DNA of 62,712 bases. Source: Acidimicrobiia bacterium (GTDB taxonomy: Bacteria; Actinomycetota; Acidimicrobiia; IMCC26256; JAENVU01). A program made the translations under genes and the position numbers. The stretch's first letter is position 1, and each line of letters starts with the position of its first letter. The notes under the pieces were generated by a model. That model was given only the letters and a program-made list of their open reading frames with translations. It made no database searches and was not told the origin of the DNA. Of the stretch, positions 1,396 through 18,802 are shown one piece after another. Where the stretch lies: the NCBI GenBank assembly GCA_031430375.1, contig JANPBJ010000207.1, positions 1-62,712 of the forward strand, given 5' to 3'.

Positions 1396-2937
1396 CTACT
1401 TACTCGCCGGGTTCCCGCGGTTCCGATACATCACCGTGCACCCTCGTCGCGCAACGAGGACGCTGTTCGCCTTGATCACCCTTTGGGTACGAGCCGTGAG
1501 ATCTTTCCGCCCAATCGTGCAAGCGCGGTCGATGAGCAGCGTTGATTCGCACGCCCTGCTCTGCGCCACGATCTCGCGTTGCACCGACGGGTAACTACTC
1601 GCACGAAATACTCCGGGTGCCGCTCCGCTCTGGAGCGCCGCCAGCAGCCCCTCGCCGTACACGTCGAGCAACACTCGATGGCCGCGCACTGCTGACGGCA
1701 CTCGGCTCACGTCGAGCAGCGCCTGAGGTCGTTGCGCCACGAGGCAGCCGGCGGCTGCGATCGCTTGGGCCAGCTCTGGTCCGGTGCGGGCGCTGACCGT
1801 GTCTGCGTCCTCGAACACACTCACCAGCTGAGTCGCGCCGATGAGGATCGCGACCCCCACGACCGCGGTTGGAGCGAACCAATCCTGGCGTTGGCGCAAC
1901 GCAGCAATGGTTGCGACCACGAGCCAGGACACGAGCATCGCTGCGGCCGGGGCTAACAACGATCCGTAATGCCAGAAATACGAGGGCGACACCATGAGTG
2001 CGAGACCCGTCACCAGACCGGTCAATCCCCAGAGACGACCGTGCGCTGATTCTCCGATGAGCGCGGCGATGCACACCGACGCGAACAGCGCCACCGCGAC
2101 CCAAACCGCAGCACCCGCAATGGGGTCCACCGTCCCTGCACGACCATGAAGGATCGGGAGGAGCGAGTTGATGCGCGACAACCCTTCGCCATCCCGAGGA
2201 CGCAGCACTTGGGCCGCCACAATCTGTTCGAACTGCACGCGCCAGCCGACTGAGACTCCAAAGGCAACGATGGTTGCCACGACGGGCGCCGCCGCGAGGG
2301 CGACCAGGCGCGCACGGTCCACGAGCGGGCGCCGGAACAGTCCCACGATCAGAACCGGGATCAGGAACACGCCCGCGACCAACTTGATCGAGATCGCCAC
2401 GCCGAGCAGCAGTCCGACGACGACCGATGGTTGGCGCCGAGAATCCCGATCCTTCGGAATCCACAGTGAGAAAGCGAGGAGTACGGCAAGATTGACAAAC
2501 GGCTCTTGCAATCCCACCGTGTCGGATCCCACTACCGCAGGCAACGTGGCAAAGATCAACGCCGAGGACAATCCGCCGGCCCAACCCATCCACCGAGCAC
2601 CCATCCGCGCGACGAGAAAGGTGTTGCATCCCCCCGCGACTGCCGCCGCGATTCGGAGCCCCGTGAGCGCCAGCGCCGGACCTCCGAACAATCCCGCCAG
2701 AGTTGTGATCGGCCACATCACGATTAAGAATCCGGGTGGGAACACGAAGACGAAGTCTCGATAGGGCAGGTGGCCCTGCCGGAGCAGCCAGCTTGCCCCG
2801 ACGTACACCGCCTCGTCGTAACTCGCGTTGACCTGTGCGTCGAAGCCAGCCTGACGATCCAAGATCAAGATCACCCGCAATGCCGCGGCGAAGACCGCTA
2901 CCACCAGGAACAGCCACGTTGCCCGTCGGCGCGTCAT
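1396..2937 (-). CDS. Polytopic membrane protein, GT-C-fold glycosyltransferase-like (PMT_2/ArnT-like)
   Basis: 513 aa with many hydrophobic helices. The first extracytoplasmic loop carries NASYDEAVY, a DE motif in the position used by GT-C/PMT_2 enzymes. Soluble C-terminal domain. Confidence 0.65.
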   Translation of the reverse strand: MTRRRATWLFLVVAVFAAALRVILILDRQAGFDAQVNASYDEAVYVGASWLLRQGHLPYRDFVFVFPPGFLIVMWPITTLAGLFGGPALALTGLRIAAAVAGGCNTFLVARMGARWMGWAGGLSSALIFATLPAVVGSDTVGLQEPFVNLAVLLAFSLWIPKDRDSRRQPSVVVGLLLGVAISIKLVAGVFLIPVLIVGLFRRPLVDRARLVALAAAPVVATIVAFGVSVGWRVQFEQIVAAQVLRPRDGEGLSRINSLLPILHGRAGTVDPIAGAAVWVAVALFASVCIAALIGESAHGRLWGLTGLVTGLALMVSPSYFWHYGSLLAPAAAMLVSWLVVATIAALRQRQDWFAPTAVVGVAILIGATQLVSVFEDADTVSARTGPELAQAIAAAGCLVAQRPQALLDVSRVPSAVRGHRVLLDVYGEGLLAALQSGAAPGVFRASSYPSVQREIVAQSRACESTLLIDRACTIGRKDLTARTQRVIKANSVLVARRGCTVMYRNRGNPASK

Positions 2938-5170: not shown

Positions 5171-7213
5171 ATGCGAGGCCGGGCGTCACGTCACGAACCA
5201 ACGTCACGCGCCACCAATACGCCTGGCGAAGGTACGTCAGGCGAAGGTACGTCTGGCGAAGGTATGTCTGGCGAACGCCGGATTGCCAGACTCCTGATCA
5301 CGTTCACCGTCCTGTTCGCAGTGATCGTGCAGAACTTCTTCTTCGCGTTTTCAACGAACATGACCGGCGACGTGCAATACCACCGCGGCGTCGCACTGAC
5401 GATGACCGCGGGGAACTTTCCGGGGCAGAGCCCGGTTCGCGGCATCGTCTCGTACTTCGGCGGGTTCTATCCGATGGTGTTCGGCTGGGCGAGCCATCTG
5501 GGAGGGTGGTCTTTCGACGGCCTCCTTTCGGTCGTGTCCTGGCTCGCAGTGATCTGCCTTCCACTCGCATTGCTCTACCTCGGCCGATCACTCTGGCCGA
5601 GCCGAGCGCTCGAGCCGGCACTCCTCATGTTCCTCGGGACCATCGGGAGCAGCCTGGGGAGAGATCCGAACGCGGAATGGGTGTTCAGCGCGCTGCCATC
5701 CGGGGCCAACGAGTGGCCGCTCTACCCCCGCGACATCTGCCTCGTTCTCATCGTGGTCGCCCTCGGGATCGTGACCAGAGACTGCTCCGTGAAGCGCTTG
5801 GTCGGCGCCGGCGCCCTCTGCGCGTTGGGCATCGCGACCCAATCCCAGGTCGGTGTCTACGGGATGCTCGCCGTGAGCGCACTGTCCATCTGGCAGGGTC
5901 GCCACACGAGCACGCGTGCAACCCAAATCCGGCGCGCCATGATTCCCCTCGGGGTGGCCATCGCCGGATCCGCATGGTGGTGGCTCCCACGCGTCAGCGC
6001 AGCCATCAAGAGCCGGGGCTTCTTGCTCGCCAGCTACCCAGGGCTCGCACGCCCAAATACGTCGTTGACGGGGATCATCAACGCGCTCGGGATCACGGGC
6101 GCCCTCGCGGCCCTTGGCCTCGCGATCGTGTTACGGCACGGCATCGGCGCCCAACGATTCTTCGGTTGGTGGCTCGCAGTCTTTCTTCCGTTCGGCATCT
6201 TCGGACGGATTCTCGGCGACGTCGGACTTCTGACCGAGCGTCGGGTTTGGTTCTTCGCAGCCATCCCGATCGTTGTCTGCGCCACCAGCGCGGCCGCTTG
6301 GCTCACGCGCATTGTTCCGCACGGACTTGCGCTCGTAGCGGTCGCGGCTCTCGTCATCGTTCCGAGCACCATCGAGTCGATCCACACGCGCGATCTCATC
6401 GACGCCGCATGGCGACCACCAGCAGCCGGAAGCCCATTCGGTAGCCGCGCGTGGAACGGCGCGTTGCACGCGGTTCGCCAGCGGGTCGAGGCCAGCAATG
6501 GGCTCGCAGTCCTCGCCCCCGATGTCGACGCGCTCTTCCTATGGCAGCGCACCGGGGCGCAGCCCTTCAGCCTCTGGCTCACCGGTCCCACCAAGCTCGG
6601 ATTCGATCCAGCGCGCCTCACGCGATGGGGGATGCTCGATCGGCTTCACCTTCAGAACCGAGCGTTCAAGCGAGGACTCGGCGGCCTCTGCGCGCTTGCG
6701 CGCGAGGTTCGGGCAGATGACCTCGTGCTGCGCCACCGGGGACACCTCCTGGGGACCCGTGATCTACGTCCCGCGAGCCGCTATCGAGTCTCACCCCGCG
6801 ACCGGAGCACGGAAACGATTCGCCGCACGGTCAACCGCCATACCGAGTACTTCGATGTGAACTCAACGGAGTTCCTCGCGCTGCACCCAGGGGGCTCCGT
6901 CCCGTTGGGTTGGTCATCGCCGTCCGTGCGCGAGATCGAGGTTGACCTGTTTCTCCCCGTGGATCCTCGCTCTCCGCCGGTGCTGCGGGAACCCGGCGGA
7001 GCCATCGTCGTGCCAATCCTCAACGCGGACGCCACGAGGCTCATCTACCGCACGCCTACGGGTGTGCCATCCGGAACGACCCTCCGTGCGCGCTCAATCG
7101 TGAACGTCGAACGGGTCATCGGCTTCGAGCCCACGGCGTTCCCGCTCCCGAGCGGCGCCGGTGTCGTTGATCTGCCCATCGCGCAGGTGTGTCCAGCGGC
7201 GCCTGCGCTTTAG
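5171..7213 (+). CDS. Large polytopic membrane protein with a C-terminal soluble domain (GT-C-like architecture, function unknown)
   Basis: The real gene is the distal part of the 4832..7213 ORF. Candidate starts are ATG 5171 or ATG 5264. About 12 hydrophobic segments are followed by ~190 aa of non-hydrophobic tail. Upstream of 5171 the frame is antisense to the PduO gene. Confidence 0.6.
   Translation: MRGRASRHEPTSRATNTPGEGTSGEGTSGEGMSGERRIARLLITFTVLFAVIVQNFFFAFSTNMTGDVQYHRGVALTMTAGNFPGQSPVRGIVSYFGGFYPMVFGWASHLGGWSFDGLLSVVSWLAVICLPLALLYLGRSLWPSRALEPALLMFLGTIGSSLGRDPNAEWVFSALPSGANEWPLYPRDICLVLIVVALGIVTRDCSVKRLVGAGALCALGIATQSQVGVYGMLAVSALSIWQGRHTSTRATQIRRAMIPLGVAIAGSAWWWLPRVSAAIKSRGFLLASYPGLARPNTSLTGIINALGITGALAALGLAIVLRHGIGAQRFFGWWLAVFLPFGIFGRILGDVGLLTERRVWFFAAIPIVVCATSAAAWLTRIVPHGLALVAVAALVIVPSTIESIHTRDLIDAAWRPPAAGSPFGSRAWNGALHAVRQRVEASNGLAVLAPDVDALFLWQRTGAQPFSLWLTGPTKLGFDPARLTRWGMLDRLHLQNRAFKRGLGGLCALAREVRADDLVLRHRGHLLGTRDLRPASRYRVSPRDRSTETIRRTVNRHTEYFDVNSTEFLALHPGGSVPLGWSSPSVREIEVDLFLPVDPRSPPVLREPGGAIVVPILNADATRLIYRTPTGVPSGTTLRARSIVNVERVIGFEPTAFPLPSGAGVVDLPIAQVCPAAPAL
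5225..5275 (+). repeat. 15-bp tandem repeat, 3.4 copies (GGCGAAGGTACGTCA / ..TCT / GGCGAAGGTATGTCT / GGCGAA)
   Basis: Read directly from the sequence. It encodes GEGTS-GEGTS-GEGMS-GE if translation starts at 5171. The C->T change in copy 3 creates the alternative ATG at 5264. Confidence 0.95.
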
Positions 7214-9132
7214 CTCGGCACAACCTCATAGAGCAGGAACCCAGGCCCGCGGACGACCAGTTTGAGGTCGCCCCGCAGGGCAAGTGCGCCGAGGTCGGTG
7301 GGGAAATGGGTGCGGGCCCCTAGCGCGTACGGACCACCGGTGGCCACCAACACATGCGTCAGTCCTTGCACCGGCAGATCCTCGATCTGGTACGGCGCCG
7401 GAGTCGAAAAGAACTGGATGCTGCGACGCAACATGGCGTTCACTCGTGCGAGGGTACGACGCTCGGTGTACGGCGCTCGTCCGTCGAGTGCGCCAGGAAC
7501 ATCTAAGAGGTCGGGGACGAATCCCTCGCTGTAGTAGTTCGTGAGCACGAGCGACTTCGGCGGAAGGTCAAGCGCACGCAACGCCCCCAGCGTGTCTGCC
7601 GGGGGAACACTCGACTGGATCTTCGACATCGGCCCCATCGCCGTCACGAACAGCCCAACCGTGATCACCACACCTACCACGAACCCCACGAGGCGACGTC
7701 TGCGCGCCATGGCGGTGATCACGATCGCGATCACAAAGGGGAAGTAGATATAGATCAGCTGTAGCACCCTCGACAAACCGGTGCGACGCGGGACGAACGT
7801 CGAGTACTGCGAGGCCAGCCAGAACGAGAACCCCAAGATCAGCGTCATCGAGACTGCGACGATGATCAGCAGCCGAAGTGCGGCCCGTCGTCGCTCTCCG
7901 CTTTTCGCGGCAGTCCATGCCAGCGCCGCGAGGGCGAGCAGGCCGAGGAACATCCACCGGTTCCACGAGAGCCCGAGCGCGCCTTGACGCAGCGACTGGA
8001 GCAGCATCCGACCGAGCGCCGGAGGGTCGTCGGCCGAGACCCGGCCGACGACCAGGTTCTTGAACTCAAAGGTCGGATCCATGTCACCCGAGAGGCGGGG
8101 AAGACCGTCCAGCTTCGTTGCGCCGGACAGCCCGCCGCCGAGCAGTTGGTTTCCGACGATCCAGGTACCGAGCAGACCAAGCCCGAGAGAGATCGCCAAA
8201 CGCACGGGCACCCGGCGGGGCGTCGCGGTGACGATCGCGGCGACAGCGACTCCACCGACCGATGCCATCGCGAACACCCAGTCGAGCCCGTGGAGTTGGC
8301 TCAACGTCAGCCCCGCGACCGACGCCAACACGAGGCTCGAAATGCGCCTTGATCGGAACCAGTCAATCGCCAATGCCGGGATCAGCAGCATCAACGCATA
8401 GCCCGCCGCTTCAGGACGGAACGAGGAAAGCTTGAACGCAAAGATCGCACCACAGGGTGCCAGGATCGTGGCGACCGCCGCCCCGAATCGATCGGAACCG
8501 AGTTGGCGCGCCAGGATGAAACAGGCGAGCGCGAATGCCACCACGACGACCACGCGCACGAGTTGGGCGGCGACCAGTCGGTCAGGGCTCAGACTCGCAA
8601 CTGCAAGTGCCGCCGACGCCCCGGTAAACCCGGGGTAGTCATCGAGGAACGGCAACCGCGTCGCCCACTCCATCGACGACACCGGCACGCCGCCGGCCGC
8701 GATCGTCTGGCGGGTCAGACTCCAGTAGTACCACGGAGTGGGCCCATTCAACGCGTCTCTCCGACGAACGATCGCCCAAATGATCGCTCCCCCCGCCACA
8801 GCAACGGAGCCGGCCACCGCAGCAGCGCTGGCCAACAGGCCGCGCCGTTCCGCCTGGCTGAACACCGCCGATGGATTCGTTCTCAGCACGACGATCGCCG
8901 CTGCCCCGATAAGGAGTGTCACCAACCAGACGATGCCGGCGTGCAAGCCCCCGGCCCGGACAAGCAGCTCACTGCCGAAAGTCCACACCGAAAGCCCGCC
9001 GGCGGTCGCGAACATCGCAAACCGAAGTCGACTGGGCCGATCGCTGCGCCGCTCGGCAAGAGCCCCGATAGCAAGTCCCGGGAGCACCAGCCACGCCGTG
9101 AGCGCGGCCACGCCGAGGAGATACGCGATCAC
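7210..9132 (-). CDS. Large polytopic membrane protein (GT-C-like architecture), last gene of the sqdB operon
   Basis: 640 aa, many TM helices, ~130-aa C-terminal soluble domain. The GTG start overlaps the stop of the upstream GT2 gene (GTGA at 9129-9132). Confidence 0.65.
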   Translation of the reverse strand: MIAYLLGVAALTAWLVLPGLAIGALAERRSDRPSRLRFAMFATAGGLSVWTFGSELLVRAGGLHAGIVWLVTLLIGAAAIVVLRTNPSAVFSQAERRGLLASAAAVAGSVAVAGGAIIWAIVRRRDALNGPTPWYYWSLTRQTIAAGGVPVSSMEWATRLPFLDDYPGFTGASAALAVASLSPDRLVAAQLVRVVVVVAFALACFILARQLGSDRFGAAVATILAPCGAIFAFKLSSFRPEAAGYALMLLIPALAIDWFRSRRISSLVLASVAGLTLSQLHGLDWVFAMASVGGVAVAAIVTATPRRVPVRLAISLGLGLLGTWIVGNQLLGGGLSGATKLDGLPRLSGDMDPTFEFKNLVVGRVSADDPPALGRMLLQSLRQGALGLSWNRWMFLGLLALAALAWTAAKSGERRRAALRLLIIVAVSMTLILGFSFWLASQYSTFVPRRTGLSRVLQLIYIYFPFVIAIVITAMARRRRLVGFVVGVVITVGLFVTAMGPMSKIQSSVPPADTLGALRALDLPPKSLVLTNYYSEGFVPDLLDVPGALDGRAPYTERRTLARVNAMLRRSIQFFSTPAPYQIEDLPVQGLTHVLVATGGPYALGARTHFPTDLGALALRGDLKLVVRGPGFLLYEVVPS

Positions 9133-9947
9133 GACACGGAAGCTGCTCGTCCTGGCGATGCCTTCGGCGTCACGCGCCGGCTTGTTCGTGCGATGACTCC
9201 GAGGAAGCCCAACGGGTAGCCGAGACGTTTCGGTTTCTTGCTCTCGCCGTGCGAGCGACTGCGTATATGGACCGGGACCTCGGCGATGCGCAAACCGGCA
9301 CGGGATGCCTCGATGATGATTTCCGGGGCCGAGAACCGCGCTTCCGTGAGCTGCATCGTGGCCAGGCTTTTGGCGCGGACGGCACGAAACCCGTTGGTGC
9401 AGTCGGTGATACCAGCGCCACTCACGCGGTTGATGAGCGCGGTGAAACCACGAATGCCCAGATCACGCGCGCCGCCGGCGTCGTCGTACTCGCCGAGGAA
9501 CCGAGATCCCTGCACGTAGTCGGCCTCGTCCCGCACGATCGGCATGACAACGTCGATCATCTGGTCCGGGCGATGCTGTCCGTCGGCGTCCATCGTCATC
9601 ACAATGTCTGCACCAAGGTCGAGCGCGTGCGCGAACCCGGTCCGCAACGCATCGCCCTGGCCGCGATTCACGGAATGCACCAGCGTCGTGTAGCCCGCGG
9701 CACGCGCAACCGTGGCCGTGTCATCGGTGCCGCCGTCGACCACCACAATCGGTGCGACGTTCATTCCCGCGAGTTCCGTCGGCAGCTCATCGAGCACACC
9801 GACGATGCCGTCCGCCTCGTTGAATGCCGGTATCACCACCGCGACCGTGGGCTTGACCACCGGCACGACCGGAGCGGCGCTCGCTCGGGCCAGCGAAACC
9901 ACCAGATCGCCGAACTTCTGATCCAAGGCCCGGAGTTTTCGGTTCAT
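9129..9947 (-). CDS. GT2 glycosyltransferase, DPM1/ArnC/GtrB-like (polyprenyl-phosphate sugar synthase type)
   Basis: Motifs VVIPAFNE, VVVDGGTDDT, NRGQGDAL, TMDADGQH, YVQGSRF and TNGFRA. ATGA overlap with the upstream epimerase. Confidence 0.85.
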   Translation of the reverse strand: MNRKLRALDQKFGDLVVSLARASAAPVVPVVKPTVAVVIPAFNEADGIVGVLDELPTELAGMNVAPIVVVDGGTDDTATVARAAGYTTLVHSVNRGQGDALRTGFAHALDLGADIVMTMDADGQHRPDQMIDVVMPIVRDEADYVQGSRFLGEYDDAGGARDLGIRGFTALINRVSGAGITDCTNGFRAVRAKSLATMQLTEARFSAPEIIIEASRAGLRIAEVPVHIRSRSHGESKKPKRLGYPLGFLGVIARTSRRVTPKASPGRAASVS

Positions 9948-10933
9948 GTCTTGTACTCCTGTCGGAACCAGTCGGCGGTGGCTTCGAGTCCTGCGCGCAA
10001 CGGCGTATCCGGCTCGTACCCAAGATCAGCACGGGCTCGACTGATATCGGAGAACGCCCGCCGAATCTCACCTCGCCGTTCGGGTTCATTGACGACCGTG
10101 ACGTCCGCGTCGGCCATGACCTCTCCGAGCAATGCCATCAACTCGTTCACCGATGTTTCAATTCCGGTGCCCAGCTGATACAGCCCTGCGGTCGGACGAC
10201 GGACGATCGCCGCGATGACCGCGTCACACAGGTCGTCGACAAACAGGAAGTCGCGTGTTTGTGCGCCGTTGCCGTACACAATCAATGCCAGACCATCCAT
10301 GATGCGTTTGAGGCACAGGGCAACCACGCTGCCCTTGTGGTAGCTGTACGGCCCGTACACATTCGTGAACCGCAACGCGGTGGCAGAGATGCCGTACGAG
10401 CCGGAAAATGCCGAACACAGCCCTTCGCCGGCCAGCTTCGACGCGCCGTACGGCGAGAGTGGCTTCGGCGCCAAACCCTCGTGGCCAGGCGGCGGTGCTG
10501 ACCCCAGAGGTGCGCCAGAACTTGCGAATACAAACGCCCCGGCCCCAGCATCGCGCGCCGCGATCAGCCCGTTCAACGTGCCAAAGATGTTGACCTCGGC
10601 ATCGCCACGCGGATCTTCGACGGAATCGACAACGCCGGTCCGCGCCGCGAGATGCACGATCGCGTCCACGCCTCTGGCCGCGGCTGAGAGCGCATCGGCA
10701 TCGCGGACATCGCCTTCGATCAGATCGTGGTAACCGGCGGCCGCAGCGTCGGCGGCGCGACCGGTGACCAAGCTGTCGAATGCAACAATCCGTGCGCCGG
10801 ACGCCAACAGGCGGCGACCAAGGTTGACGCCAATGAATCCGGCACCTCCGGTGACCAGCACCGTCTGGCCGTCGAGCGGGTTGTTCCCCTGAGTTCCACC
10901 GGACACGATCGACCGAGTGTAACGATCGGCCAC
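9944..10933 (-). CDS. NAD-dependent sugar-nucleotide epimerase/dehydratase (SDR family)
   Basis: Rossmann motif VTGGAGFIG and catalytic YGASK. 329 aa, GTG start. Confidence 0.85.
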   Translation of the reverse strand: MADRYTRSIVSGGTQGNNPLDGQTVLVTGGAGFIGVNLGRRLLASGARIVAFDSLVTGRAADAAAAGYHDLIEGDVRDADALSAAARGVDAIVHLAARTGVVDSVEDPRGDAEVNIFGTLNGLIAARDAGAGAFVFASSGAPLGSAPPPGHEGLAPKPLSPYGASKLAGEGLCSAFSGSYGISATALRFTNVYGPYSYHKGSVVALCLKRIMDGLALIVYGNGAQTRDFLFVDDLCDAVIAAIVRRPTAGLYQLGTGIETSVNELMALLGEVMADADVTVVNEPERRGEIRRAFSDISRARADLGYEPDTPLRAGLEATADWFRQEYKT

Positions 10934-11007
10934 CCAAATCTGCGTTCTTCGTGGCCGGTCCAGATCCCAACCAGGTCAGCAACCTGGTCACCCAGCCAGA
11001 TCCCCGA

Positions 11008-12729
11008 TCAACGGCCGTTGAAGAGCGACCATGGGAACGACGACGTCGAAGGTGGAAGCAACACCGCAAGTTTGCCGATTCGTTCGACCTGGCCTTGAAG
11101 TTCAGTAGCGGATCTCGGGGTACTCACGGAGACGAACCACGGAACGATCGAGCCCGGCGTGCTGCGGTCCCCTGCGATGACCTGCAAATCCGGGAGCGAG
11201 TTGAGCGGCCTCGTCCGGAACGCTCGGCCACCCGGGGGCGACCCAGTCACCCAAACCACCTGTCCGTTCGGTACCTCGAAATGCGGGAGCGGCCCACCGG
11301 GAATCATGAAGTGGAGTCTGCGATGTATTCCTTGCCAATCGAGATAGTTCCTCACGGGTGTTCGCCACCGACGATCCACGGGGCCGACGACCACCACATC
11401 GTCGGCCGCAGTCTGTGCGATCACTACGGCCAGCTCGCGGTAATCAGTCTTCTCCGACCGGAAATAGACGCCAAGCGAGATCATCGACAGCACCGAGACC
11501 GTGGCGGCCACGGAGGTCATCACTGTGCCAGGGGCGGGCTTCTTGTTGGACCAGGGAACCCGGAGCCGGTTCGCTATCGCGACCGTTCCCATGGCCGCGA
11601 GCAACAACACGACGGGCAGCAAGAACTCGATTCGGCGCATCGCGAAGTACGTCTTGAGCACCCATGCCAACGGGACCAACGCCACCATGACCAAGACGCC
11701 GTATGCCGCGACTCCCACCGCGACCTTCTGAAGCACACCGCGAAGCAGCACGACCGAAGCCACCGCGAGACCGGTGAGACCCAGCGCGAGCAGTGTCCAA
11801 CGACCACCGTTCCCCAACAGCCAATGCGCGGTTCGCTTGAAGAGATCGAGGTCTAACGCAACATCGTTGACCACCTGTGGATTGAGGTTGTACGACCGCC
11901 CGCGCCAAAGATCTGGCACCCATCGAACGGCGCCCCACAGGAACCAAGGCCCGGCGAGCACCGCGGCCGTCACCAACCCCGCCAGCGCATTGCGTGTGAG
12001 TTCCGCCGATCCGGCCCCAACCGGAACCCGGCGCCCGCGGCGGATCGTCCACCCGATGACCGCGATTTGCATCACCATCACCAATGGGGCGAACGGGTGC
12101 GCCAACACCATGACACCAAGCGCACCGCCCCACCACAAGAACGCTCGACGTTGCCGACTCTGGAGAGCGCGCACCACGAGCCACCACGAGATGAGGTGCA
12201 GTGCGGAGAACGTGGTGTAGTAGCGGTTCTCTTGGGAATACCGGACTGCGAACGGTGCGACCGCCAAGAAGATTCCAGCCAGCAGCGCGACGTCACGACG
12301 ATCGGTCAGCCGACGCGCCACCAACACAATCCCCAAGACCTCGAGCGTCCCGAAGACCACCGCCGGGATCCGAGCTGCTGACTCGAACCCAATGGGAAGC
12401 ATCGTGGCCAGCCACACCGCGATGTAGTGGAGCGGCGGCTCGAACGGGCCGCCGCTCGTACGGAGGTCGCCGAGCATGTGCTCGGACCGAACCAACGAGA
12501 GCACGTTGATCTCGTCGACCCAGAAACTGTTCGCGCCGATTCGGAACAGCCGCAAACCCAGCGCCACGATGAGGATCGCGATGATTGCAAACTTGTAGTG
12601 CCGTGCTGAACGCAGATCACCCTGCGGCGCGCTCAACCGCGTGGGCTCAGCGCCAGCGGGTTGCAGGGTCAATCGCGCGCGGGTTGATCCGATCCTTGAA
12701 CCGCTCAACGGTGTGCAACACGGTTTCAA
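11008..12729 (-). CDS. GT-C glycosyltransferase, PMT_2/ArnT-like (family 39/83 type)
   Basis: The N-terminal TM helix is followed by SFWVDEINV, the W.DE motif of ArnT/PMT_2 enzymes, then ~12 TM segments and a C-terminal soluble domain. Start uncertain. ATG 12729 overlaps sqdB by 83 nt. In-frame TTG 12636 lies 10 nt after the sqdB stop. Confidence 0.75.
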   Translation of the reverse strand: MKPCCTPLSGSRIGSTRARLTLQPAGAEPTRLSAPQGDLRSARHYKFAIIAILIVALGLRLFRIGANSFWVDEINVLSLVRSEHMLGDLRTSGGPFEPPLHYIAVWLATMLPIGFESAARIPAVVFGTLEVLGIVLVARRLTDRRDVALLAGIFLAVAPFAVRYSQENRYYTTFSALHLISWWLVVRALQSRQRRAFLWWGGALGVMVLAHPFAPLVMVMQIAVIGWTIRRGRRVPVGAGSAELTRNALAGLVTAAVLAGPWFLWGAVRWVPDLWRGRSYNLNPQVVNDVALDLDLFKRTAHWLLGNGGRWTLLALGLTGLAVASVVLLRGVLQKVAVGVAAYGVLVMVALVPLAWVLKTYFAMRRIEFLLPVVLLLAAMGTVAIANRLRVPWSNKKPAPGTVMTSVAATVSVLSMISLGVYFRSEKTDYRELAVVIAQTAADDVVVVGPVDRRWRTPVRNYLDWQGIHRRLHFMIPGGPLPHFEVPNGQVVWVTGSPPGGRAFRTRPLNSLPDLQVIAGDRSTPGSIVPWFVSVSTPRSATELQGQVERIGKLAVLLPPSTSSFPWSLFNGR

Positions 12730-13795
12730 TCAGCTCGTCGGACAGCATCCGCGGTTTGAGACCGAGTTCCAGCAGACCCGTGTGCTTCGGGTTGTAGTAG
12801 TGGTCCTCCAACTCAAAGCGTGGGTTGTCCACATGCTCGAGTTGCGCGTTGTACCCGAGATGACGAGCCGCCGTGACCACTTCATCCGCGAGTTGGTTGA
12901 CGGAGAAGAGCTCGGTGAACTGGTTGAACACTCGCATCTCGCCCTGGGCCGCGGGAGTGCGGGTCGCGAGCTCGATGCACTGCACGGTGTCGCGGATGTT
13001 GAGGTATCCACGGGTCTGGTTGCCCTTGCCGTACACAGTGATCGGGTGGCCGATCACGGCCTGTACGCAGAAGCGGTTCAGCGCGGTCCCAAAGATCTCG
13101 TCGTAGTCGAACCGGGTGAGCAGACGATCGTCGATCTCGGTGTCGTCGGTGTGAATGCCATACACGACGCCCTGGTTCAGGTCGGTGGCACGTAGCCCCC
13201 AGACCCGGCAGGCGAAGTGAATGTTGTGAGAATCATGCACCTTGGAGAGGTGATAGAAGCTGCCAGGGAGTTTCGGGAACGGGAGCCGATCGGTCCGACC
13301 ATTGTGCTCGAGTTCGAGGTAGCCCTCCTCGATATCGATGTTCGGCGTGCCGTATTCACCCATGGTGCCGAGCTTCACGAGGTGTGCGTCCGGCACAACT
13401 TCGCGCATCGCCCAGATCACGTTCATGCAGCCCTCAACATTGTTGCGCTGCGTTTCCCACGCGTGGTCGCGGTCGATCATCGAATAGGGCGCGGATGGAA
13501 TTTCTCCGTAGTGCACGATCGTGTCAGGGCGGAAACTCGCGAACACCGCGAGGAGTCCCTTGTAGTCGCAGATGTCAAGGACGTGAGATTCGATTCGCTT
13601 GCCCGAGACCTGCTCCCACGCCGTCACTCGATCCTGCAGCGGTGCGATGGGAGTCAGGCTGTCAGTTCCTCGTTCGAGGTGTCCCCGCCGACGCGTGAAG
13701 TCGTCGACAATCGCTACGTCGTCGCCGAGGCGCGAAAAGTGCATCGCCGTCGGCCAACCGAGATAGCCATCGCCGCCAAGAATCAGGATCCGCAC
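12647..13795 (-). CDS. sqdB: UDP-sulfoquinovose synthase (SQD1/SqdB)
   Basis: Long blocks match plant SQD1 and cyanobacterial SqdB as I recall them: LGGDGY.GW, SAPYSMIDR, KLGTMGEYGTPNIDIEEGY, SFYHLSKVHDSHNI, RATDLNQGVVYG, FGTALNRFCVQA, TVYGKG.QTRGYL.IRDTVQC. Preferred start is GTG 13795 (MRILILGGDGY...), preceded by ACGGAGG at 5-nt spacing. The ORF track starts at TTG 13846. Confidence 0.9.
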   Translation of the reverse strand: MRILILGGDGYLGWPTAMHFSRLGDDVAIVDDFTRRRGHLERGTDSLTPIAPLQDRVTAWEQVSGKRIESHVLDICDYKGLLAVFASFRPDTIVHYGEIPSAPYSMIDRDHAWETQRNNVEGCMNVIWAMREVVPDAHLVKLGTMGEYGTPNIDIEEGYLELEHNGRTDRLPFPKLPGSFYHLSKVHDSHNIHFACRVWGLRATDLNQGVVYGIHTDDTEIDDRLLTRFDYDEIFGTALNRFCVQAVIGHPITVYGKGNQTRGYLNIRDTVQCIELATRTPAAQGEMRVFNQFTELFSVNQLADEVVTAARHLGYNAQLEHVDNPRFELEDHYYNPKHTGLLELGLKPRMLSDELIETVLHTVERFKDRINPRAIDPATRWR

Positions 13796-13891
13796 ACTGA
13801 CCTCCGTTTGTCCACCGTATGTGTGCGACATCGACACGCGCTGCAAGGTTGTTACCGCTGCGCGTTGCCCGCCGCTTGATGCCGTTGGAGG

Positions 13892-15199
13892 CTAATAGTC
13901 GCGTGGCGCGCGATCGGGGACCCGGTCGAAACCTTTTGCCGACTGCAATGGGCCACGGACGAGGAGTCCCATCACCAGCGCGGACGTGGCCGCACCCGCC
14001 AGGAAACCAACTTCGACACGGGTGAGCACATCATCACCCAACACCACACAGAGCGCGAGAACCACCACTCCACTGGCCCACGCATAGCTCACCCGATTCG
14101 GACATTCCAGGGCAACCAGGGCAGATCCGAACGTAACGGCAAGCAAATATAGGCATGACCCCGCCGCGAGGAATGCGAAATCCCGCGCACCCAACGCGAA
14201 GCCGGGGCCCCAACCCAGCTCGACCACCGTGGGACCAAGCGCGGCGGCGCCGAGCGTCGCCACAACCACAAGGACCGCGAGCGCGCGCGCCAATGCTCCG
14301 GTCTCATCGGCGAGCGACACCGCCCGGCCGCCGCCCGCGTGATGCGACAATCTCGGCACCAGCGCTGCCTGCGCGGCCTGGAACAGAAACACCGGCACCC
14401 GGGCCACGAGCAGGCATGCCACGAACGCACTCGTGAGCGCGGCATTGCGCGGAGCGAGCAAGCGCACGAACACGGGCGCGAGATTCACGAGGGCCTGTGC
14501 GAACACCGACGCGGCCAACAACCACCCGAGCGAGCGCGTTAACTCACGCCACGGCGCCGGCGGGCCGGGTGCCGCCAATACCGCTCGATCACCGCGCGAT
14601 AGGCCCACCACGATTCCGACGTACGGAGCGATCGCGAGGACGATTCCATAGGGCCCGGCTTGTTCAACTCCCACGAACGCCAGAACCACGACCGCGATCA
14701 ATCGGCTCGCCGACTCGGCACCGAGGAGTCGACCATAGGCACCGAAGCGTGCTTCTCCGGCGAGCAGGCCTCGAACCAGGAACTCGGCCACGGTGCCGAC
14801 GAAGAGTCCGACGAAGGCGACCAACAGCACCCAGTCATTCCCGAAGAGCCTTCGGGTCAATACTGAGCCAAACGCCAGGATGAGCACCACGATCAGCGCG
14901 GTGAAACCGGCGGAGGCGATCGCGGCGCGGCGAACGACCGGGCCCACCCCGAGCGATTGGGCCCGGCGACTGGCGATGGCGCGTGCCACCTCCTGTTCCA
15001 CCGGAAGTCCTGCCGCATTTCCCAGGAGGAATCCCACCACCCACAGCGTGGACAGGCCCGAAGATTCCTGCGCTCCGAGAGCACGACCCGTGGTGGCGAG
15101 GAAGAGGTAGGTGAGCACACCGCTGACGGCGACCCATGCGCCGACGGTGCCGGTACCTTGGGGGAGCACGCTGGCGGCGCGGCGCGCTCGGCCTGCCAT
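13892..15199 (-). CDS. Polytopic membrane protein, MOP-superfamily (Wzx/MurJ-like) flippase candidate
   Basis: Real start is ATG 15199 (MAGRARRAAS...). The ORF-track extension to 15838 is antisense to metH. About 12 TM segments. It carries an R-V-P-x-F-L-F-Q-A-x-Q-A-x-L-x-P motif resembling the MurJ/Wzx C-terminal half. Paralogous to 28450..29790. Confidence 0.6.
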   Translation of the reverse strand: MAGRARRAASVLPQGTGTVGAWVAVSGVLTYLFLATTGRALGAQESSGLSTLWVVGFLLGNAAGLPVEQEVARAIASRRAQSLGVGPVVRRAAIASAGFTALIVVLILAFGSVLTRRLFGNDWVLLVAFVGLFVGTVAEFLVRGLLAGEARFGAYGRLLGAESASRLIAVVVLAFVGVEQAGPYGIVLAIAPYVGIVVGLSRGDRAVLAAPGPPAPWRELTRSLGWLLAASVFAQALVNLAPVFVRLLAPRNAALTSAFVACLLVARVPVFLFQAAQAALVPRLSHHAGGGRAVSLADETGALARALAVLVVVATLGAAALGPTVVELGWGPGFALGARDFAFLAAGSCLYLLAVTFGSALVALECPNRVSYAWASGVVVLALCVVLGDDVLTRVEVGFLAGAATSALVMGLLVRGPLQSAKGFDRVPDRAPRDY

Positions 15200-15340
15200 T
15201 CCAGGGCTACCCACGACATTCAACCCAGTCGGCGACCGCTCCCCTGGCCAGGTTCGGGTCCATGCATCGACGGTACCCGAGACTTGTCGGCAATTACGCG
15301 AAGGGGCAGAAGAGACCGACCCAGTAGCCTCTTGGGCTTC

Positions 15341-18300
15341 ATGTCGGACTTTCTCACTGCCCTCGACGAACGCGTCCTGATCCTCGACGGGGCTTTTGGC
15401 ACCTGGGTGCAGGGCCAAGACCTCGGTCCCGATGATTTTGGCGGTGACGAGCTCGAAGGTTGCAACGAGCATCTCGTCGTCACGCGACCCGACCTGATCC
15501 GCCAGATGCATTCCGAATACTTCGCGGTCGGGGTCGACGCGGTCGAAACCGCCACGTTTGGTTCGTTCGCGTTGGTGCTGAATGAATACGGCATCGCGGA
15601 GAAGTCCTACGAGATGAACGTGCTCGCGGCGCGCCTCGCCAAGGAAGCGGCCGAGGAGTACAGCACACCGGCGCGACCACGGTGGGTTGTCGGTTCGATG
15701 GGTCCCGGGACGCGGCTCCCTTCCCTCGGAGCGATCACCTTCGACGCGCTGCGTGACGACTACCAAGAGCAAGCGGCCGGGCTCCTGGAGGGTGGCGCGG
15801 ACGTGCTGCTGATCGAGACGGTCTATGACCTGCTCCAAGCCAAGGCCGCGCTGATCGCGTGTCGCCGCGCGATGGCCGACGCGGGCCGTGAACTACCGCT
15901 CATCGTGCAGGTCACGATGGAGACCACCGGCCGCATGCTCGTCGGTTCCGAAATCGGCGCCGCGCTCACCACCCTCGAAGCCATGCGTCCGGATGTCATC
16001 GGGCTCAACTGCGCGACGGGCCCGAACGAGATGACTGAGCACCTGCGCTACCTGGCGCAGCACTCTCGAACGCGGCTGTCGTGCCTGCCGAATGCGGGCC
16101 TCCCCTCAGTCGTGAACGGCCATACGCACTACGACCTCACCCCCGACCTACTCGCCGATGCTCACGAGCGGTTCGTGACCGAGTTCGGCATCAACCTCGT
16201 GGGCGGGTGCTGCGGCACCACGCCAGAGCACCTCGCGGCGGTCGTAGCTCGGCTGGGCCACGACCGCGTTCCCGTGCCACGCTCCCCGGAGTTCGAGCCG
16301 GGCTGCTCCAGCATCTACAGCCATGTTCCGTATTACCAGGAACTCGCGTACCTGGCGGTGGGCGAGCGCACCAACGCGGTCGGATCGAGGAAGTTCCGCG
16401 ACGCGATGCTTGCTGAGGACTGGGACATGTGCGTGCAGATGGCGCGCGAACAAGTAAAGGAAGGCGCGCACGTCCTCGACGTGTGCGTGGACTACGTGGG
16501 CCACGACGGCACCGTCGACATGGAACAAATCGCGAGCCGTTTCGCGACCCAGGCCGCGCTTCCCCTCGTGTTCGACTCCACCGAGCCCCCGGTGATGGAG
16601 ACCGGACTCAAGCACTCCGGGGGGAAATCGATTCTCAACTCGGCCAACCTCGAGGATGGCGAGCACGAGGGATCTCGTCTGGACCGCGTGTTTACCTTGG
16701 CGCGCGAATACGGCTCAGCTGTCATTTGTCTGGCGATCGACGAAGAAGGTCAGGCGCGTGACGCCGATTGGAAGTTGCGCGTCTGCAAGCGCATCTATGA
16801 CCTCGCCACCGAGAAGTACGGCATCGACCCAACCGATCTGATCTTCGACATGCTCACCTTCCCTCTGGGGTCGGGGCAGGACGAACTTCGTCACGATGGC
16901 ATCGAGACCATCGAGGCGATCCGCCGGGTGAAGGCGGAACTTCCCGGGTCATCCACCATCCTCGGACTCTCCAATGTGAGCTTCGGACTCAAGCCCGCGA
17001 TCCGCCATGTACTCAACAGCGTGTTCCTGCACGAGTGTCGTGAGGCTGGTCTCGACGCCGCCATCGCGCATGCGGCGCGCATCATTCCGATGCACAAGAT
17101 CGACGACCGCGCCCGTGAAGTCGCGCTCGACCTGATCTACGACCGCCGGACCGACGACTACGACCCGCTCCACGTACTTCTCGGCCTCTTCGAAGGCGTG
17201 GAGGCTGGCGCCGTCGAGCGCGAAGACCGATCGGGTTGGCCCGTCGAAGAGCGGCTGAAGCACCGGATCATCGATGGCGAACGCGACGGCATCGAAGCCG
17301 AACTCGAAGAAGCCCGCCTCGGTGGCCGCGAACCGTTGTCGATCATCAACGACGTGCTCCTCGAGGGCATGAAGGTGGTCGGCGACCTTTTCGGGCGCGG
17401 CGAGATGCAGTTGCCGTTCGTCCTGCAGAGCGCGGAAACGATGAAGACGGCGGTGGCACACCTCGAGCCGTACCTGGAGAGAAGCGACAGCGGTGGCAAG
17501 GGCGTGGTGGTCATCGGCACCGTCAAAGGTGACGTGCACGACATCGGCAAGAACCTCGTCGACATCATTCTCACCAACAACGGCTACCAAGTGCACAACA
17601 TCGGGATCAAGGCTCCGCTCCAAACCTTCGTCGACAAAGCCAAGGAGGTCGGGGCCGACGCGATCGGGATGAGCGGGCTCCTCGTGAAGTCCACCATCAT
17701 CATGCGCGAAAATCTGCTCGAAATGAACGCACTCGGACTCGCCGAAGTTCCAGTCATGCTCGGCGGCGCCGCGCTCACCCGCAACTACGTCGAGGTCGAT
17801 CTCCGCGAGGTCTACGACGGCAAGCTCTTTTACGGCAAGGATGCGTTCGAGGGTCTGCACACGATGGACACCCTCATGGAATCGAAACGCACCGGTGTGA
17901 TCGATCCCGCGTTCGGTCGTGCGCCCGGCGGTCGCAAGCTCCCACCGCGCAAGTCCCAACAGGTGGTGGAACCCGTCGACGTTCCGGCGCGGTCCGATGT
18001 TGCCGCCGATGTTCCCGTGTTCAAGCCCCCGTTCCTCGGTCCGCGCATCGCGAAAGGCGTATCCCTCGACGAGATCGCCGGGTTCATCAACGAGACCGCG
18101 CTGTTCCGCAACCAGTGGCAGTTCCGCCCCGAAAGCGGAGAGTCCGATGCCGAGTTCAAGACCCGGATTCGGCCGACATTGCGCGCCGAACTCGACAGTG
18201 CAAAATCGGCGGGCTGGCTGGTGCCAGCGGTCGCGTGGGGCTATTTCCCGGTGAATGCCGAGGGCGATGACCTCGTGGTCTGGAACGACGACGATCGGCG

Positions 18301-18802
18301 CACCGAACGGTGCCGCTTCAACTTCCCCCGCCAGCAGAAGGACCGGTTTCTCTGCATCTCCGACTTCTTCCGCGGCGTCGAGTCGGGGGATGCCGATTAC
18401 GCCGCGTTCCATGTCGTCACGGTTGGATCGGCAGCCAGCGAACGCGAGCGTGAACTCTTCGCGGAAAACCGATACCAGGAGTACCTGCTCACCCACGGCC
18501 TTTCCGTGGAGATGACCGAAGCGCTCGCCGAGCTGTGGCATCGCCGCATCCGCGAAGAATGGGGCTACGTCGGGGAAGACGGACCAAACCTCGCGGGCCT
18601 CTTCCGTCAGAAGTATCGCGGGGGACGCTATTCATGGGGCTACCCGGCGTGCCCCGATCTCGACGACCAAGCAAAGCTGGTAGAGATCCTCGAGGTCGAC
18701 AAGATTGGCGTTGTCCTCACCGACGAGTTCCAGCTCGAACCCGAGCAGACCACCAGCGCCATCATCGTCGCGCACCCTGAGGCGAAGTACTTCGTGATCT
18801 AG
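15341..18802 (+). CDS. metH: Cobalamin-dependent methionine synthase
   Basis: 1153 aa from ATG 15341 (MSDFLTALDERVLILDGAFGT). Contains the Hcy-binding, pterin-binding, B12-binding (GDVHDIGKN) and AdoMet activation domains. The upstream ORF extension is antisense to the flippase gene. Confidence 0.97.
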   Translation: MSDFLTALDERVLILDGAFGTWVQGQDLGPDDFGGDELEGCNEHLVVTRPDLIRQMHSEYFAVGVDAVETATFGSFALVLNEYGIAEKSYEMNVLAARLAKEAAEEYSTPARPRWVVGSMGPGTRLPSLGAITFDALRDDYQEQAAGLLEGGADVLLIETVYDLLQAKAALIACRRAMADAGRELPLIVQVTMETTGRMLVGSEIGAALTTLEAMRPDVIGLNCATGPNEMTEHLRYLAQHSRTRLSCLPNAGLPSVVNGHTHYDLTPDLLADAHERFVTEFGINLVGGCCGTTPEHLAAVVARLGHDRVPVPRSPEFEPGCSSIYSHVPYYQELAYLAVGERTNAVGSRKFRDAMLAEDWDMCVQMAREQVKEGAHVLDVCVDYVGHDGTVDMEQIASRFATQAALPLVFDSTEPPVMETGLKHSGGKSILNSANLEDGEHEGSRLDRVFTLAREYGSAVICLAIDEEGQARDADWKLRVCKRIYDLATEKYGIDPTDLIFDMLTFPLGSGQDELRHDGIETIEAIRRVKAELPGSSTILGLSNVSFGLKPAIRHVLNSVFLHECREAGLDAAIAHAARIIPMHKIDDRAREVALDLIYDRRTDDYDPLHVLLGLFEGVEAGAVEREDRSGWPVEERLKHRIIDGERDGIEAELEEARLGGREPLSIINDVLLEGMKVVGDLFGRGEMQLPFVLQSAETMKTAVAHLEPYLERSDSGGKGVVVIGTVKGDVHDIGKNLVDIILTNNGYQVHNIGIKAPLQTFVDKAKEVGADAIGMSGLLVKSTIIMRENLLEMNALGLAEVPVMLGGAALTRNYVEVDLREVYDGKLFYGKDAFEGLHTMDTLMESKRTGVIDPAFGRAPGGRKLPPRKSQQVVEPVDVPARSDVAADVPVFKPPFLGPRIAKGVSLDEIAGFINETALFRNQWQFRPESGESDAEFKTRIRPTLRAELDSAKSAGWLVPAVAWGYFPVNAEGDDLVVWNDDDRRTERCRFNFPRQQKDRFLCISDFFRGVESGDADYAAFHVVTVGSAASERERELFAENRYQEYLLTHGLSVEMTEALAELWHRRIREEWGYVGEDGPNLAGLFRQKYRGGRYSWGYPACPDLDDQAKLVEILEVDKIGVVLTDEFQLEPEQTTSAIIVAHPEAKYFVI

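Follow-up and report, generated by a model that had tools for sequence, protein, structure and literature searches.

A gene cluster of uncultured Acidimicrobiia links a UDP-sulfoquinovose synthase with polyprenyl-phosphate and GT-C glycosyltransferases and suggests a lipid-linked sulfoquinovose donor

Contig JANPBJ010000207.1 of the Acidimicrobiia assembly GCA_031430375.1, of which we analysed a stretch of 62,712 nt (hereafter the window), carries at 7210-15199 a cluster of six genes, G1 to G6, in which a UDP-sulfoquinovose synthase of the SqdB/SQD1 type (G2, sqdB) stands together with a glycosyltransferase family 2 (GT2) enzyme of the polyprenyl-phosphate class (G5), glycosyltransferases of the GT-C class (G3 and G6), a short-chain dehydrogenase/reductase (SDR, G4) and a flippase candidate (G1), and to which we add a seventh gene, G7 (Table 1). 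The presence of these genes, their family and fold assignments and their conserved linkage are established here. We propose, with slightly more confidence than doubt as regards the full mechanism, that the cluster encodes a three-component extracytoplasmic glycosylation system of the Gtr/Arn/CsbB-YfhO type whose donor would be polyprenyl-phosphate-sulfoquinovose. To our knowledge, sulfoquinovose has been described in bacteria essentially as a lipid head group, that of sulfoquinovosyldiacylglycerol (SQDG), and beyond lipids the sugar is known only in the N-glycans of a few archaea. Full-text searches for literature linking sulfoquinovose with polyprenyl or undecaprenyl carriers, GT-C enzymes, teichoic acids or Acidimicrobiia found none. 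A sequence-only reading of this DNA had proposed the same interpretation, and comparative genomics of related and distant loci now supports it independently, as far as sequence comparison can carry it.

When characterizing G2, we observed a full-length alignment of 536 bits with Arabidopsis SQD1 (1qrr, also 1i24), in which residues 2-382 match residues 3-383 of 1qrr with similarity at the 65% level and an intact active site. The G2 motifs GTMGEYG and SFYHLSK are identical to those of SQD1 in the alignment (klgTmgeyg and sfYHlsK), and they hold what we take, with the numbering and roles of the SQD1 structure, to be the catalytic Thr145, Tyr182 and Lys186 and the SQD1-specific His183. Hundreds of close homologues carry the JGI name UDP-sulfoquinovose synthase, and an exact-sequence look-up with the window SqdB gave no match. 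By these comparisons G2 is a UDP-sulfoquinovose synthase with the catalytic residues of SQD1 and a predicted enzymatic role to match, as had been read from the sequence at the outset.

G5 matched Pfam Glycos_transf_2 (PF00535, 4.8e-20), and its top NCBIfam models were PpgS (8e-28), AglJ, a dolichyl-phosphate (Dol-P) hexose transferase and ArnC, all under their equivalog cut-offs by wide margins, so that the assignment holds at the family level only; G5 is not a PpgS orthologue, because its 97 bits lie far under the cut-off of 370. The best PDB matches were the P. furiosus dolichyl-phosphate mannose synthase (DPMS, 5mlz) and ArnC, with DADGQHRP of G5 aligned to DADLQHPP and the DADxQH motif in common, which together with the polyprenyl-phosphate models bears out the earlier assignment of G5 as a DPM1/ArnC/GtrB-like GT2. 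The sequence-only reading had tied this enzyme to sqdB by gene clustering only, and the link is now much stronger. A profile scan of metagenome contigs with an alignment of G5 orthologues returned 80 loci, all of which encode a G5-type GT2 (38-61% identity); their GC content spans 0.33-0.73, and we therefore regard them as taxonomically broad. sqdB was present in 44 of the 80, and in 24 of the 27 independent loci that have at least 5 kb of sequence upstream. The SDR accompanies the sqdB-GT2 pair in only 7 of the 80 loci; the G5-type GT2 clade thus has its constant partner in sqdB and not in the SDR.

In most of these lineages the GT2 has an N-terminal domain of three transmembrane (TM) segments, and the commonest arrangement, found in 16 metagenome loci and here called the L085 type, places sqdB in divergent orientation to two PMT_2 genes, with the GT2 coming after these. 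Pfam confirmed PMT_2 proteins beside the pair in L054, L055, L067, L078 and L100, and a YfhO-family protein in L097. These GT-C genes are not orthologous to G3 or G6; HMMs built from the G3 and G6 families did not reach as far as the GT-C enzymes of distant loci, for which a TM-count screen was used with Pfam on a sample. Such layouts were seen on high-GC contigs in L085 (3637-8675) and likewise in L054, L067, L069, L075, L076, L078, L100 and L104, each GT2 having the N-terminal three-TM domain. In L097 (2708-14697) the pair has three large polytopic proteins (668, 724 and 848 aa) as flanking neighbours, of which one is the YfhO match and the other two, with no Pfam match, carry after an early TM segment a W/Y-rich motif resembling TPWYYW of G6. 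In L112 (1917-12969, GC 0.33) sqdB and a G5-type GT2 lie within an O-antigen/capsule-like cluster (MBOAT, a protein with an FGE-sulfatase domain, Polysacc_synt_2, GT2, SDR, GT4, Wzy_C and a 4,6-dehydratase), and on an Anaerolinea contig (L037) sqdB adjoins a different GT2 and a Bac_transf initiating enzyme. The Actinomycetota metagenome-assembled genome (MAG) GCA_026003015.1 (L003, 10001-12210) has a minimal two-gene version, in which sqdB overlaps a G5-type GT2 of 43% identity with an N-terminal extension of 2-3 TM segments, and no SDR and no GT-C was found within 10 kb.

A scan with the G3 family profile, with one genome per prokaryotic species, gave 27 orthologous loci, all from uncultured Acidimicrobiia/Actinomycetota MAGs. 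The sequence-only reading had named conservation of the neighbourhood in relatives as a point on which it could be refuted, and it was not refuted there: by tblastn with the window proteins, the set G1-SqdB-G3-SDR-GT2-G6, usually with G7, is kept in about 24 of these 27 species-level genomes. The genes remain together despite changes of order, G3 being relocated across metH in L007 and L008, the layout inverted in L013, the order G1-G3-SqdB-SDR-GT2 found in L022 and L024, and G6 and G7 relocated upstream in L038. In the Acidimicrobiia MAG locus L009 (11617-18978) the SDR-GT2-G6-G7 block is replaced by a 606-aa protein with 11 TM segments, an oxidoreductase-like gene, a different DPM1-like GT2 and an 810-aa GT-C of the G6 family, a swap that preserves the pathway logic. 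L004 is the closest relative of the window; the two share 78-98% identity in the flanking and cytoplasmic genes but only 47% in G6 and 42% in G7, as would be expected of enzymes that face the surface on the acceptor side. The segment at 5264-9132 of the window, set against 13474-17325 of L004, looks like a local hypervariable, possibly exchanged, acceptor-side stretch. No GT4 or GT8 SQDG synthase was found among the cluster genes or those tabulated for L001, L002 and L038.

The GT-C side of the cluster comprises G3, G6 and possibly G7. G3 reached 45.6 bits (1.1e-11) with Pfam PMT_2 (PF13231), above the cut-off of 26.1, and the W.DE motif that had been noticed in it is invariant in 18 family members as W39-D41-E42, within SFW[IV]DEI right after TM1; an acidic DE pair (D41-E42) in the first extracytoplasmic loop is a trait of the GT39 PMT enzymes. 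The window protein did not match PF02366 (PMT proper), which a minority of homologues carry, and we filed G3 as a PMT_2-type GT-C and not as GT39 because only PF13231 matched. Its family counts about 95 clusters, almost all from Acidimicrobiia. The G6 window protein has no Pfam match; a full HMMER scan gave about 200 representatives of its relatives, and among 68 aligned members PMT_2 was found in 15 and DUF6541 in 10. The AlphaFold2 model of G6 (pLDDT 94, pTM 0.94) matched STT3, AglB, PglB, AftA, ArnT and ALG12/9 in Foldseek, and hhalign against the G3 family gave a probability of 96.8% with the 68-sequence G6 alignment and 16% (not significant) with a small alignment. G6 is therefore a GT-C-fold protein as judged from its model, in agreement with the initial view of this 640-aa membrane protein. 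G7 follows immediately on G6 in at least 13 related loci, at 33-56% identity; it had no Pfam, PDB or hhalign match, its hhalign scores against the G3 or G6 profiles were not significant (0.9%, 6.7% and 16%), and PDB-sequence profile searches with the G1, G3, G6 and G7 families gave nothing meaningful. Its topology and a conserved acidic motif just after TM1 (GDxxYHRGV) make it a possible further GT-C.

G1 is the only transporter-like gene of the cluster. No Pfam family was assigned to the window protein, which did not reach the gathering scores of MurJ, Polysacc_synt or Polysacc_synt_C; among 15 orthologues there were weak matches to MurJ in 6 (best 1e-4) and to Polysacc_synt in 1 (0.0036), NCBIfam gave no match for the family, and the JGI name of the orthologues is O-antigen/teichoic acid export membrane protein. 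An AlphaFold2 model built from 21 sequences (pLDDT 76, moderate confidence) matched MATE, WzxE (9g9m/9g9n) and MurJ in Foldseek at TM-scores of 0.64-0.73. We thus assign to G1, with moderate confidence, the modelled fold of the MOP superfamily, and it stays the MOP-type flippase candidate that it was first taken for. G4 likewise kept its first assignment, SDR epimerase, and appears as a GalE-like extended SDR: it matched Pfam Epimerase (2.4e-53), its best PDB matches were the UDP-glucose 4-epimerases 4zrm and 7ys8 and WbpP, placing it closest to UDP-glucose and UDP-GlcNAc 4-epimerases, and it has the motifs GxxGxxG and S...YxxxK but not the TDE motif of dehydratases.

Taken as a pathway, these proteins would act in four steps. 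SqdB would convert UDP-glucose and sulfite in the cytoplasm to UDP-alpha-D-sulfoquinovose (UDP-SQ), as its similarity to SQD1 and intact active site suggest. The inverting GT2 G5 would then move the sulfo-sugar to polyprenyl phosphate, giving polyprenyl-P-beta-sulfoquinovose, to which both its family and the tight, taxonomically broad sqdB-GT2 linkage point; before this step, in the present lineage, the GalE-like G4 may optionally modify the sugar, for example by 4-epimerisation. The analogy with Haloferax AglR suggests that G1 would move the sugar on its lipid across to the outer leaflet; G3 and G6, perhaps with G7, would transfer the sugar with inversion to one or more envelope acceptors, for which a wall glycan, a lipoglycan and a secreted protein are candidates. 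We derive the stereochemistry of the proposed products from the fact that GT2 and GT-C enzymes are inverting. We infer the identity of the donor, the lipid carrier, the flipping, the acceptor and the linkage from the behaviour of the DPM1/GtrB/ArnC, MOP and GT-C families.

Several observations weigh against this pathway. G2 scored under the NCBIfam NF041015 equivalog cut-off (477.2 bits against 575, covering 2-384 of 384 model positions), and its name therefore rests on the comparison with SQD1. An SDR lies here between sqdB and the GT2, so that the GT2 sugar might differ from sulfoquinovose or the donor might be an ordinary UDP-hexose, and the donor specificity of a GT2 cannot be read from its sequence. 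G5 lacks TM segments, and no membrane partner for it is obvious. The candidate flippase belongs to the MOP type, and G1 could flip something else: bacterial MOP-type flippases normally move undecaprenyl-diphosphate (Und-PP)-oligosaccharides, not polyprenyl-P-monosaccharides, and no flippase of the GtrA/GtcA or ArnE/F type was identified among the annotated genes, short ORFs not having been systematically screened for GtrA (PF04138). The sqdB-GT2 pairs of L003, L087, L090, L095 and L111 have no GT-C within reach, and in organisms of this kind the lipid-linked sugar itself or another lipid product might be the end product. Finally, the window covers 62 kb, and an SQDG synthase elsewhere in the genome is possible.

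The last point leads to an explanation that we consider improbable, in which SqdB feeds ordinary SQDG synthesis through an SqdX/SQD2-type enzyme encoded elsewhere, the SDR, GT2 and GT-C genes form an unrelated Gtr/Ppm-like system for a common hexose or hexosamine (UDP-Gal, UDP-Glc or UDP-GalNAc), and their co-location is historical. The resemblance of G4 to UDP-glucose and UDP-GlcNAc 4-epimerases and its overlap with G5 would suit such a system, as would the similar logic of the mycobacterial epimerase and PpgS, PpgS being the best NCBIfam match of G5. However, sqdB is linked to the G5-type GT2 in 24 of 27 flanked loci while no more than 7 of 80 loci have the SDR, in many lineages (e.g. L003) sqdB directly adjoins or overlaps the GT2 with no SDR present, the linkage outlasts several rearrangements, and no GT4 adjoins sqdB in the annotated loci.

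We give an equally low standing to a second explanation, in which the pathway runs as proposed but its acceptor is specifically protein, so that G3, annotated as GT39-like, would O-sulfoquinovosylate secreted or membrane proteins in the manner of actinobacterial Pmt, which O-mannosylates proteins from polyprenyl-P-mannose. The PMT_2 type and DE motif of G3, the homologues that match PF02366 PMT, the NCBI name GT39 and a secreted Hvo_1808-family-like surface protein conserved beside the cluster all speak for it, but PMT_2 also includes ArnT-like lipid and glycan transferases, and three GT-C-type proteins would better suit the building or decoration of a glycan. Less probable again is that G5 is a new inverting sulfoquinovosyltransferase making a beta-sulfoquinovosyl membrane lipid (of diacylglycerol or another lipid) as the end product, with the GT-C enzymes acting on something else. 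Some GT2 enzymes do glycosylate diacylglycerol, cyanobacterial MgdA among them, and the N-terminal three-TM domain of the GT2 in most lineages and the five pairs listed above with no nearby GT-C would agree with a membrane lipid; yet the best family and structure matches are all polyprenyl/dolichyl-phosphate enzymes with the DADxQH motif, and GT-C genes from at least three unrelated subfamilies recur beside the sqdB-GT2 pair. That G1 is a classical Wzx flipping an Und-PP-oligosaccharide with sulfoquinovose built in on the cytoplasmic side, the polytopic proteins being polymerase- or ligase-like, has in its favour the MOP fold and exporter name of G1 and the presence of sqdB in Wzy- or Bac_transf-type polysaccharide clusters (L112 and L037), but we regard it as the least probable of all, since neither an initiating phosphoglycosyltransferase nor cytoplasmic GT-A or GT-B enzymes for glycan assembly occur in the Acidimicrobiia cluster, G3 and G6 belong to GT-C and not to the Wzy or O-antigen-ligase families, and G5 belongs to the monosaccharide-P-polyprenol synthase family.

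Returning to polyprenyl-phosphate-sulfoquinovose as the donor, we can state an extension that is bolder and, in our view, unlikely in its full form: that this compound is a general but so far overlooked bacterial lipid-linked sugar donor, the product of a dedicated DPM1-like GT2 clade that accompanies sqdB through many phyla. In the present Acidimicrobiia, two or three GT-C enzymes would then draw on it to assemble or modify an anionic wall polymer or glycoprotein coat that is sulfonated and free of phosphate; such a coat would do the work of teichoic acids, in the way that SQDG can replace phospholipids. If the SDR of the cluster acts on the sugar as a 4-epimerase, the product might be a sulfo-sugar new to science.

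As regards the layout of the locus, the six minus-strand ORFs at 7210-15199 are all present in the co-directional arrangement first described, with coding-type codon composition (G+C at third positions, GC3, 0.71-0.78). The mechanical ORF of G1 spans 13892-15838 on the minus strand; we kept the earlier choice of 15199 as its start because metH runs divergently from about 15341 on the plus strand and the orthologues are 434-447 aa long. For G3, of the two starts first offered, 12729 and 12636, the TTG at 12636 stood and 12729 did not, because homologues align from the former and the public gene call for the contig is 542 aa; the gap between the sqdB stop and this start is 10 nt. Inspection of the sequence confirmed the reported 4-nt overlaps, ATGA at 9947-9944 (G4/G5) and GTGA at 9132-9129 (G5/G6), the intergenic gaps of 96 nt and 74 nt, and the 7-bp hairpin in the latter, between G3 and G4 (ACCAGGT-TGCTG-ACCTGGT, 10988-10970), which has no T-run after it and was not called terminator-like in a terminator scan. 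G7 converges on G6 with a 4-nt overlap of the stop codons. Between 4400 and 15500, promoter-like matches (0 against 1.3 expected from shuffled sequence) and terminator-like matches (8 against 6.6) were at chance level. Between G1 and metH, where the cluster promoter is presumed to lie, there was no sigma-70 consensus match and no Rfam family, and neither Rfam families nor tRNAs were found in the whole window. The host had been called an actinobacterium, with which the best named homologues, all Acidimicrobiia MAGs, agree. A haloarchaeal origin, to which the NCBIfam matches to AglJ, Agl23 and an Hvo_1808-family protein and a GC content near 65% might have pointed, was rejected because a bacterial-type MetH adjoins the cluster and the close homologues are all from Acidimicrobiia MAGs.

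Table 1. Features of the cluster and its immediate surroundings in the window.
Feature	Positions	Strand	Basis
G1, polytopic MOP-superfamily (Wzx/MurJ/MATE fold) flippase candidate, 435 aa, first cluster gene	13892..15199	-	Model fold
G2, SqdB/SQD1-type UDP-sulfoquinovose synthase (predicted), 382 aa	12647..13795	-	SQD1 alignment, active-site motifs
G3, GT-C glycosyltransferase, PMT_2 type, TTG start, 542 aa	11008..12636	-	Pfam PMT_2
Hairpin, 7 bp, in the 74-nt G3-G4 gap	10970..10988	-	Read from sequence
G4, extended SDR, GalE-like nucleotide-sugar 4-epimerase candidate, 329 aa	9944..10933	-	Pfam, PDB matches
G5, GT2 polyprenyl-phosphate glycosyltransferase (DPM1/GtrB/ArnC/PpgS-like), 272 aa	9129..9947	-	Pfam, NCBIfam, PDB
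G6, GT-C-fold glycosyltransferase (predicted), C-terminal extracytoplasmic domain, 640 aa	7210..9132	-	AlphaFold2 model, Foldseek, hhalign
G7, polytopic membrane protein with large C-terminal domain, 649 aa	5264..7213	+	Conserved position after G6
Divergent G1-metH intergenic region, presumed cluster promoter region	15200..15340		Position
metH (S-methyl_trans, Pterin_bind, B12-binding, Met_synt_B12)	from ~15341	+	Pfam

Several neighbouring genes were also recorded. The plus-strand ORF at 14957-18802 (1281 codons) includes about 128 spurious codons upstream of metH, and the minus-strand ORFs at 16949-18541 (530 aa) and 16148-16666 (172 aa) were rejected as non-coding shadows inside metH, typical of high-GC DNA. 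Just beyond metH, 18840-20288 (minus strand) encodes a 482-aa DPM1/AglJ-like GT2 fused to an S-adenosylmethionine (SAM)-dependent methyltransferase domain, which is conserved in this position in L004 (97% identity), L006, L009 and L027 and could supply this envelope pathway with another lipid-linked sugar, which might be methylated. The 483-aa secreted or anchored protein at 20378-21829 (minus strand) resembles the NCBIfam Hvo_1808-family surface protein (2.5e-30, under the cut-off) and DUF6782 (putative metallopeptidase), is kept beside the cluster in L002, L004, L006, L012, L014 and L020, and could be an envelope protein and a candidate target of glycosylation. Two genes downstream of the cluster, 1396-2937 (minus strand) encodes a further GT-C membrane protein (GT87 1e-5, PMT_2 2.4e-5) with homologues near the cluster in L015 and L027. 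Farther away lie a 517-aa LipB-LipA fusion (23836-25389, minus strand; LplA-B_cat, LIAS_N and Radical_SAM), which adjoins 2-oxoacid dehydrogenase E2 and E3 genes, and a DinB_2 plus FGE-sulfatase protein (42478-43758, plus strand) with the EgtB-like architecture of ergothioneine biosynthesis.

If the proposed pathway is true, a strongly anionic, phosphorus-free sugar joins the known repertoire of bacterial envelope glycans, the donor specificity of a recognisable GT2 clade, otherwise very hard to predict, becomes defined, and the widespread bacterial pathways of sulfoquinovose degradation gain a new biological source of their substrate. Were the reading as a general donor also true, soil and aquatic bacteria would contain a large amount of sulfoquinovose that has so far gone uncounted and that feeds sulfoglycolysis in the sulfur cycle. 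The sqdB-GT2 pair is apparently widespread, from GC 0.33 to 0.73 and beside several kinds of GT-C; therefore the idea can be tested by heterologous expression although the Acidimicrobiia carriers found here are all MAGs of uncultured organisms.

Because all equivalog cut-offs were missed by wide margins, we do not regard the cluster proteins as orthologues of the members of any named system, and the earlier label Arn/Gtr-like stands as to pathway logic and not as to orthology, the flippase being MOP-type and not GtrA or ArnE/F. The SQDG pathway (SqdB/SQD1 with SqdX/SQD2/SqdD) shares with the cluster its first enzyme and nucleotide sugar; its partner here is an inverting GT2 of the polyprenyl-phosphate class, with no GT4 or GT8 synthase in the cluster or its annotated relatives, and since no such transferase accompanies sqdB we do not consider the cluster an SQDG operon. 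The mycobacterial PpgS (Rv3631)/Rv3779 system for arabinogalactan galactosamine and the Ppm1/Pmt/PimE systems are likewise actinobacterial and employ a polyprenyl-P GT2 with no TM segment; an epimerase adjoins the synthase, and the donor is used by GT-C enzymes, a likeness that extends to the GT87-like gene at 1396-2937. They differ in that the donor here is predicted to be UDP-SQ and not UDP-GalNAc or GDP-Man, and G5 is no PpgS orthologue. The ArnC-ArnE/F-ArnT system also clusters a dedicated nucleotide-sugar enzyme with an ArnC-like GT2 and an ArnT-like GT-C, and ArnC and ArnT were among our matches; the sugar here would carry an anionic sulfonate in place of the cationic amine of aminoarabinose, there is no ArnE/F-type flippase of the small multidrug resistance (SMR) family, and the host is a Gram-positive-type actinobacterium without lipid A.

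Among archaeal systems, Haloferax AglD/AglR/AglS, in which Dol-P-mannose is made, flipped and transferred by a GT-C, offers a precedent for a MOP-like protein working with a lipid-phosphate monosaccharide, and models of archaeal N-glycosylation proteins (AglJ and Agl23) were among the NCBIfam matches; the organism here is bacterial. In Sulfolobus, sulfoquinovose probably joins the Dol-PP-glycan ahead of flipping. Lipids aside, Sulfolobus is the one case in which a glycoconjugate is known to contain sulfoquinovose, and its agl3, which encodes the UDP-SQ synthase, is not clustered with genes of the kind described here (PMC8993221). The CsbB/GtcA/YfhO system of teichoic acid glycosylation in Firmicutes (PMC5836110, PMC8035078) follows the same logic, to which the YfhO-family protein of L097 adds a likeness, and differs in flippase type and sugar, no teichoic acid genes having been seen here.

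A further comparison is with the three-component periplasmic systems, GtrA-GtrB-Gtr* of Shigella and Salmonella, in the scheme of Mann & Whitfield 2016 as cited in PMC11127046, and with the pentofuranose three-component systems of Kelly et al. 2024 (PMC11127046); sulfo-sugars are not mentioned in this 2024 survey. As in Gtr, a GT2 polyprenyl-P-sugar synthase, a flippase and a GT-C are encoded together, and the acceptor-side GT-C is variable (as the G6 and G7 identities with L004 illustrate). The cluster differs from Gtr in having a UDP-sulfoquinovose synthase, so that the predicted sugar is a sulfonated 6-deoxyhexose, a MOP-type flippase candidate in place of GtrA, two or three GT-C genes in place of one, and a G5 that lacks the C-terminal TM hairpin of GtrB. 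Relative to the known three-component scheme, what appears to be new is thus the predicted sugar and the mix of components, namely a MOP-type flippase candidate, two or three GT-C enzymes and a GT2 with no TM segment.

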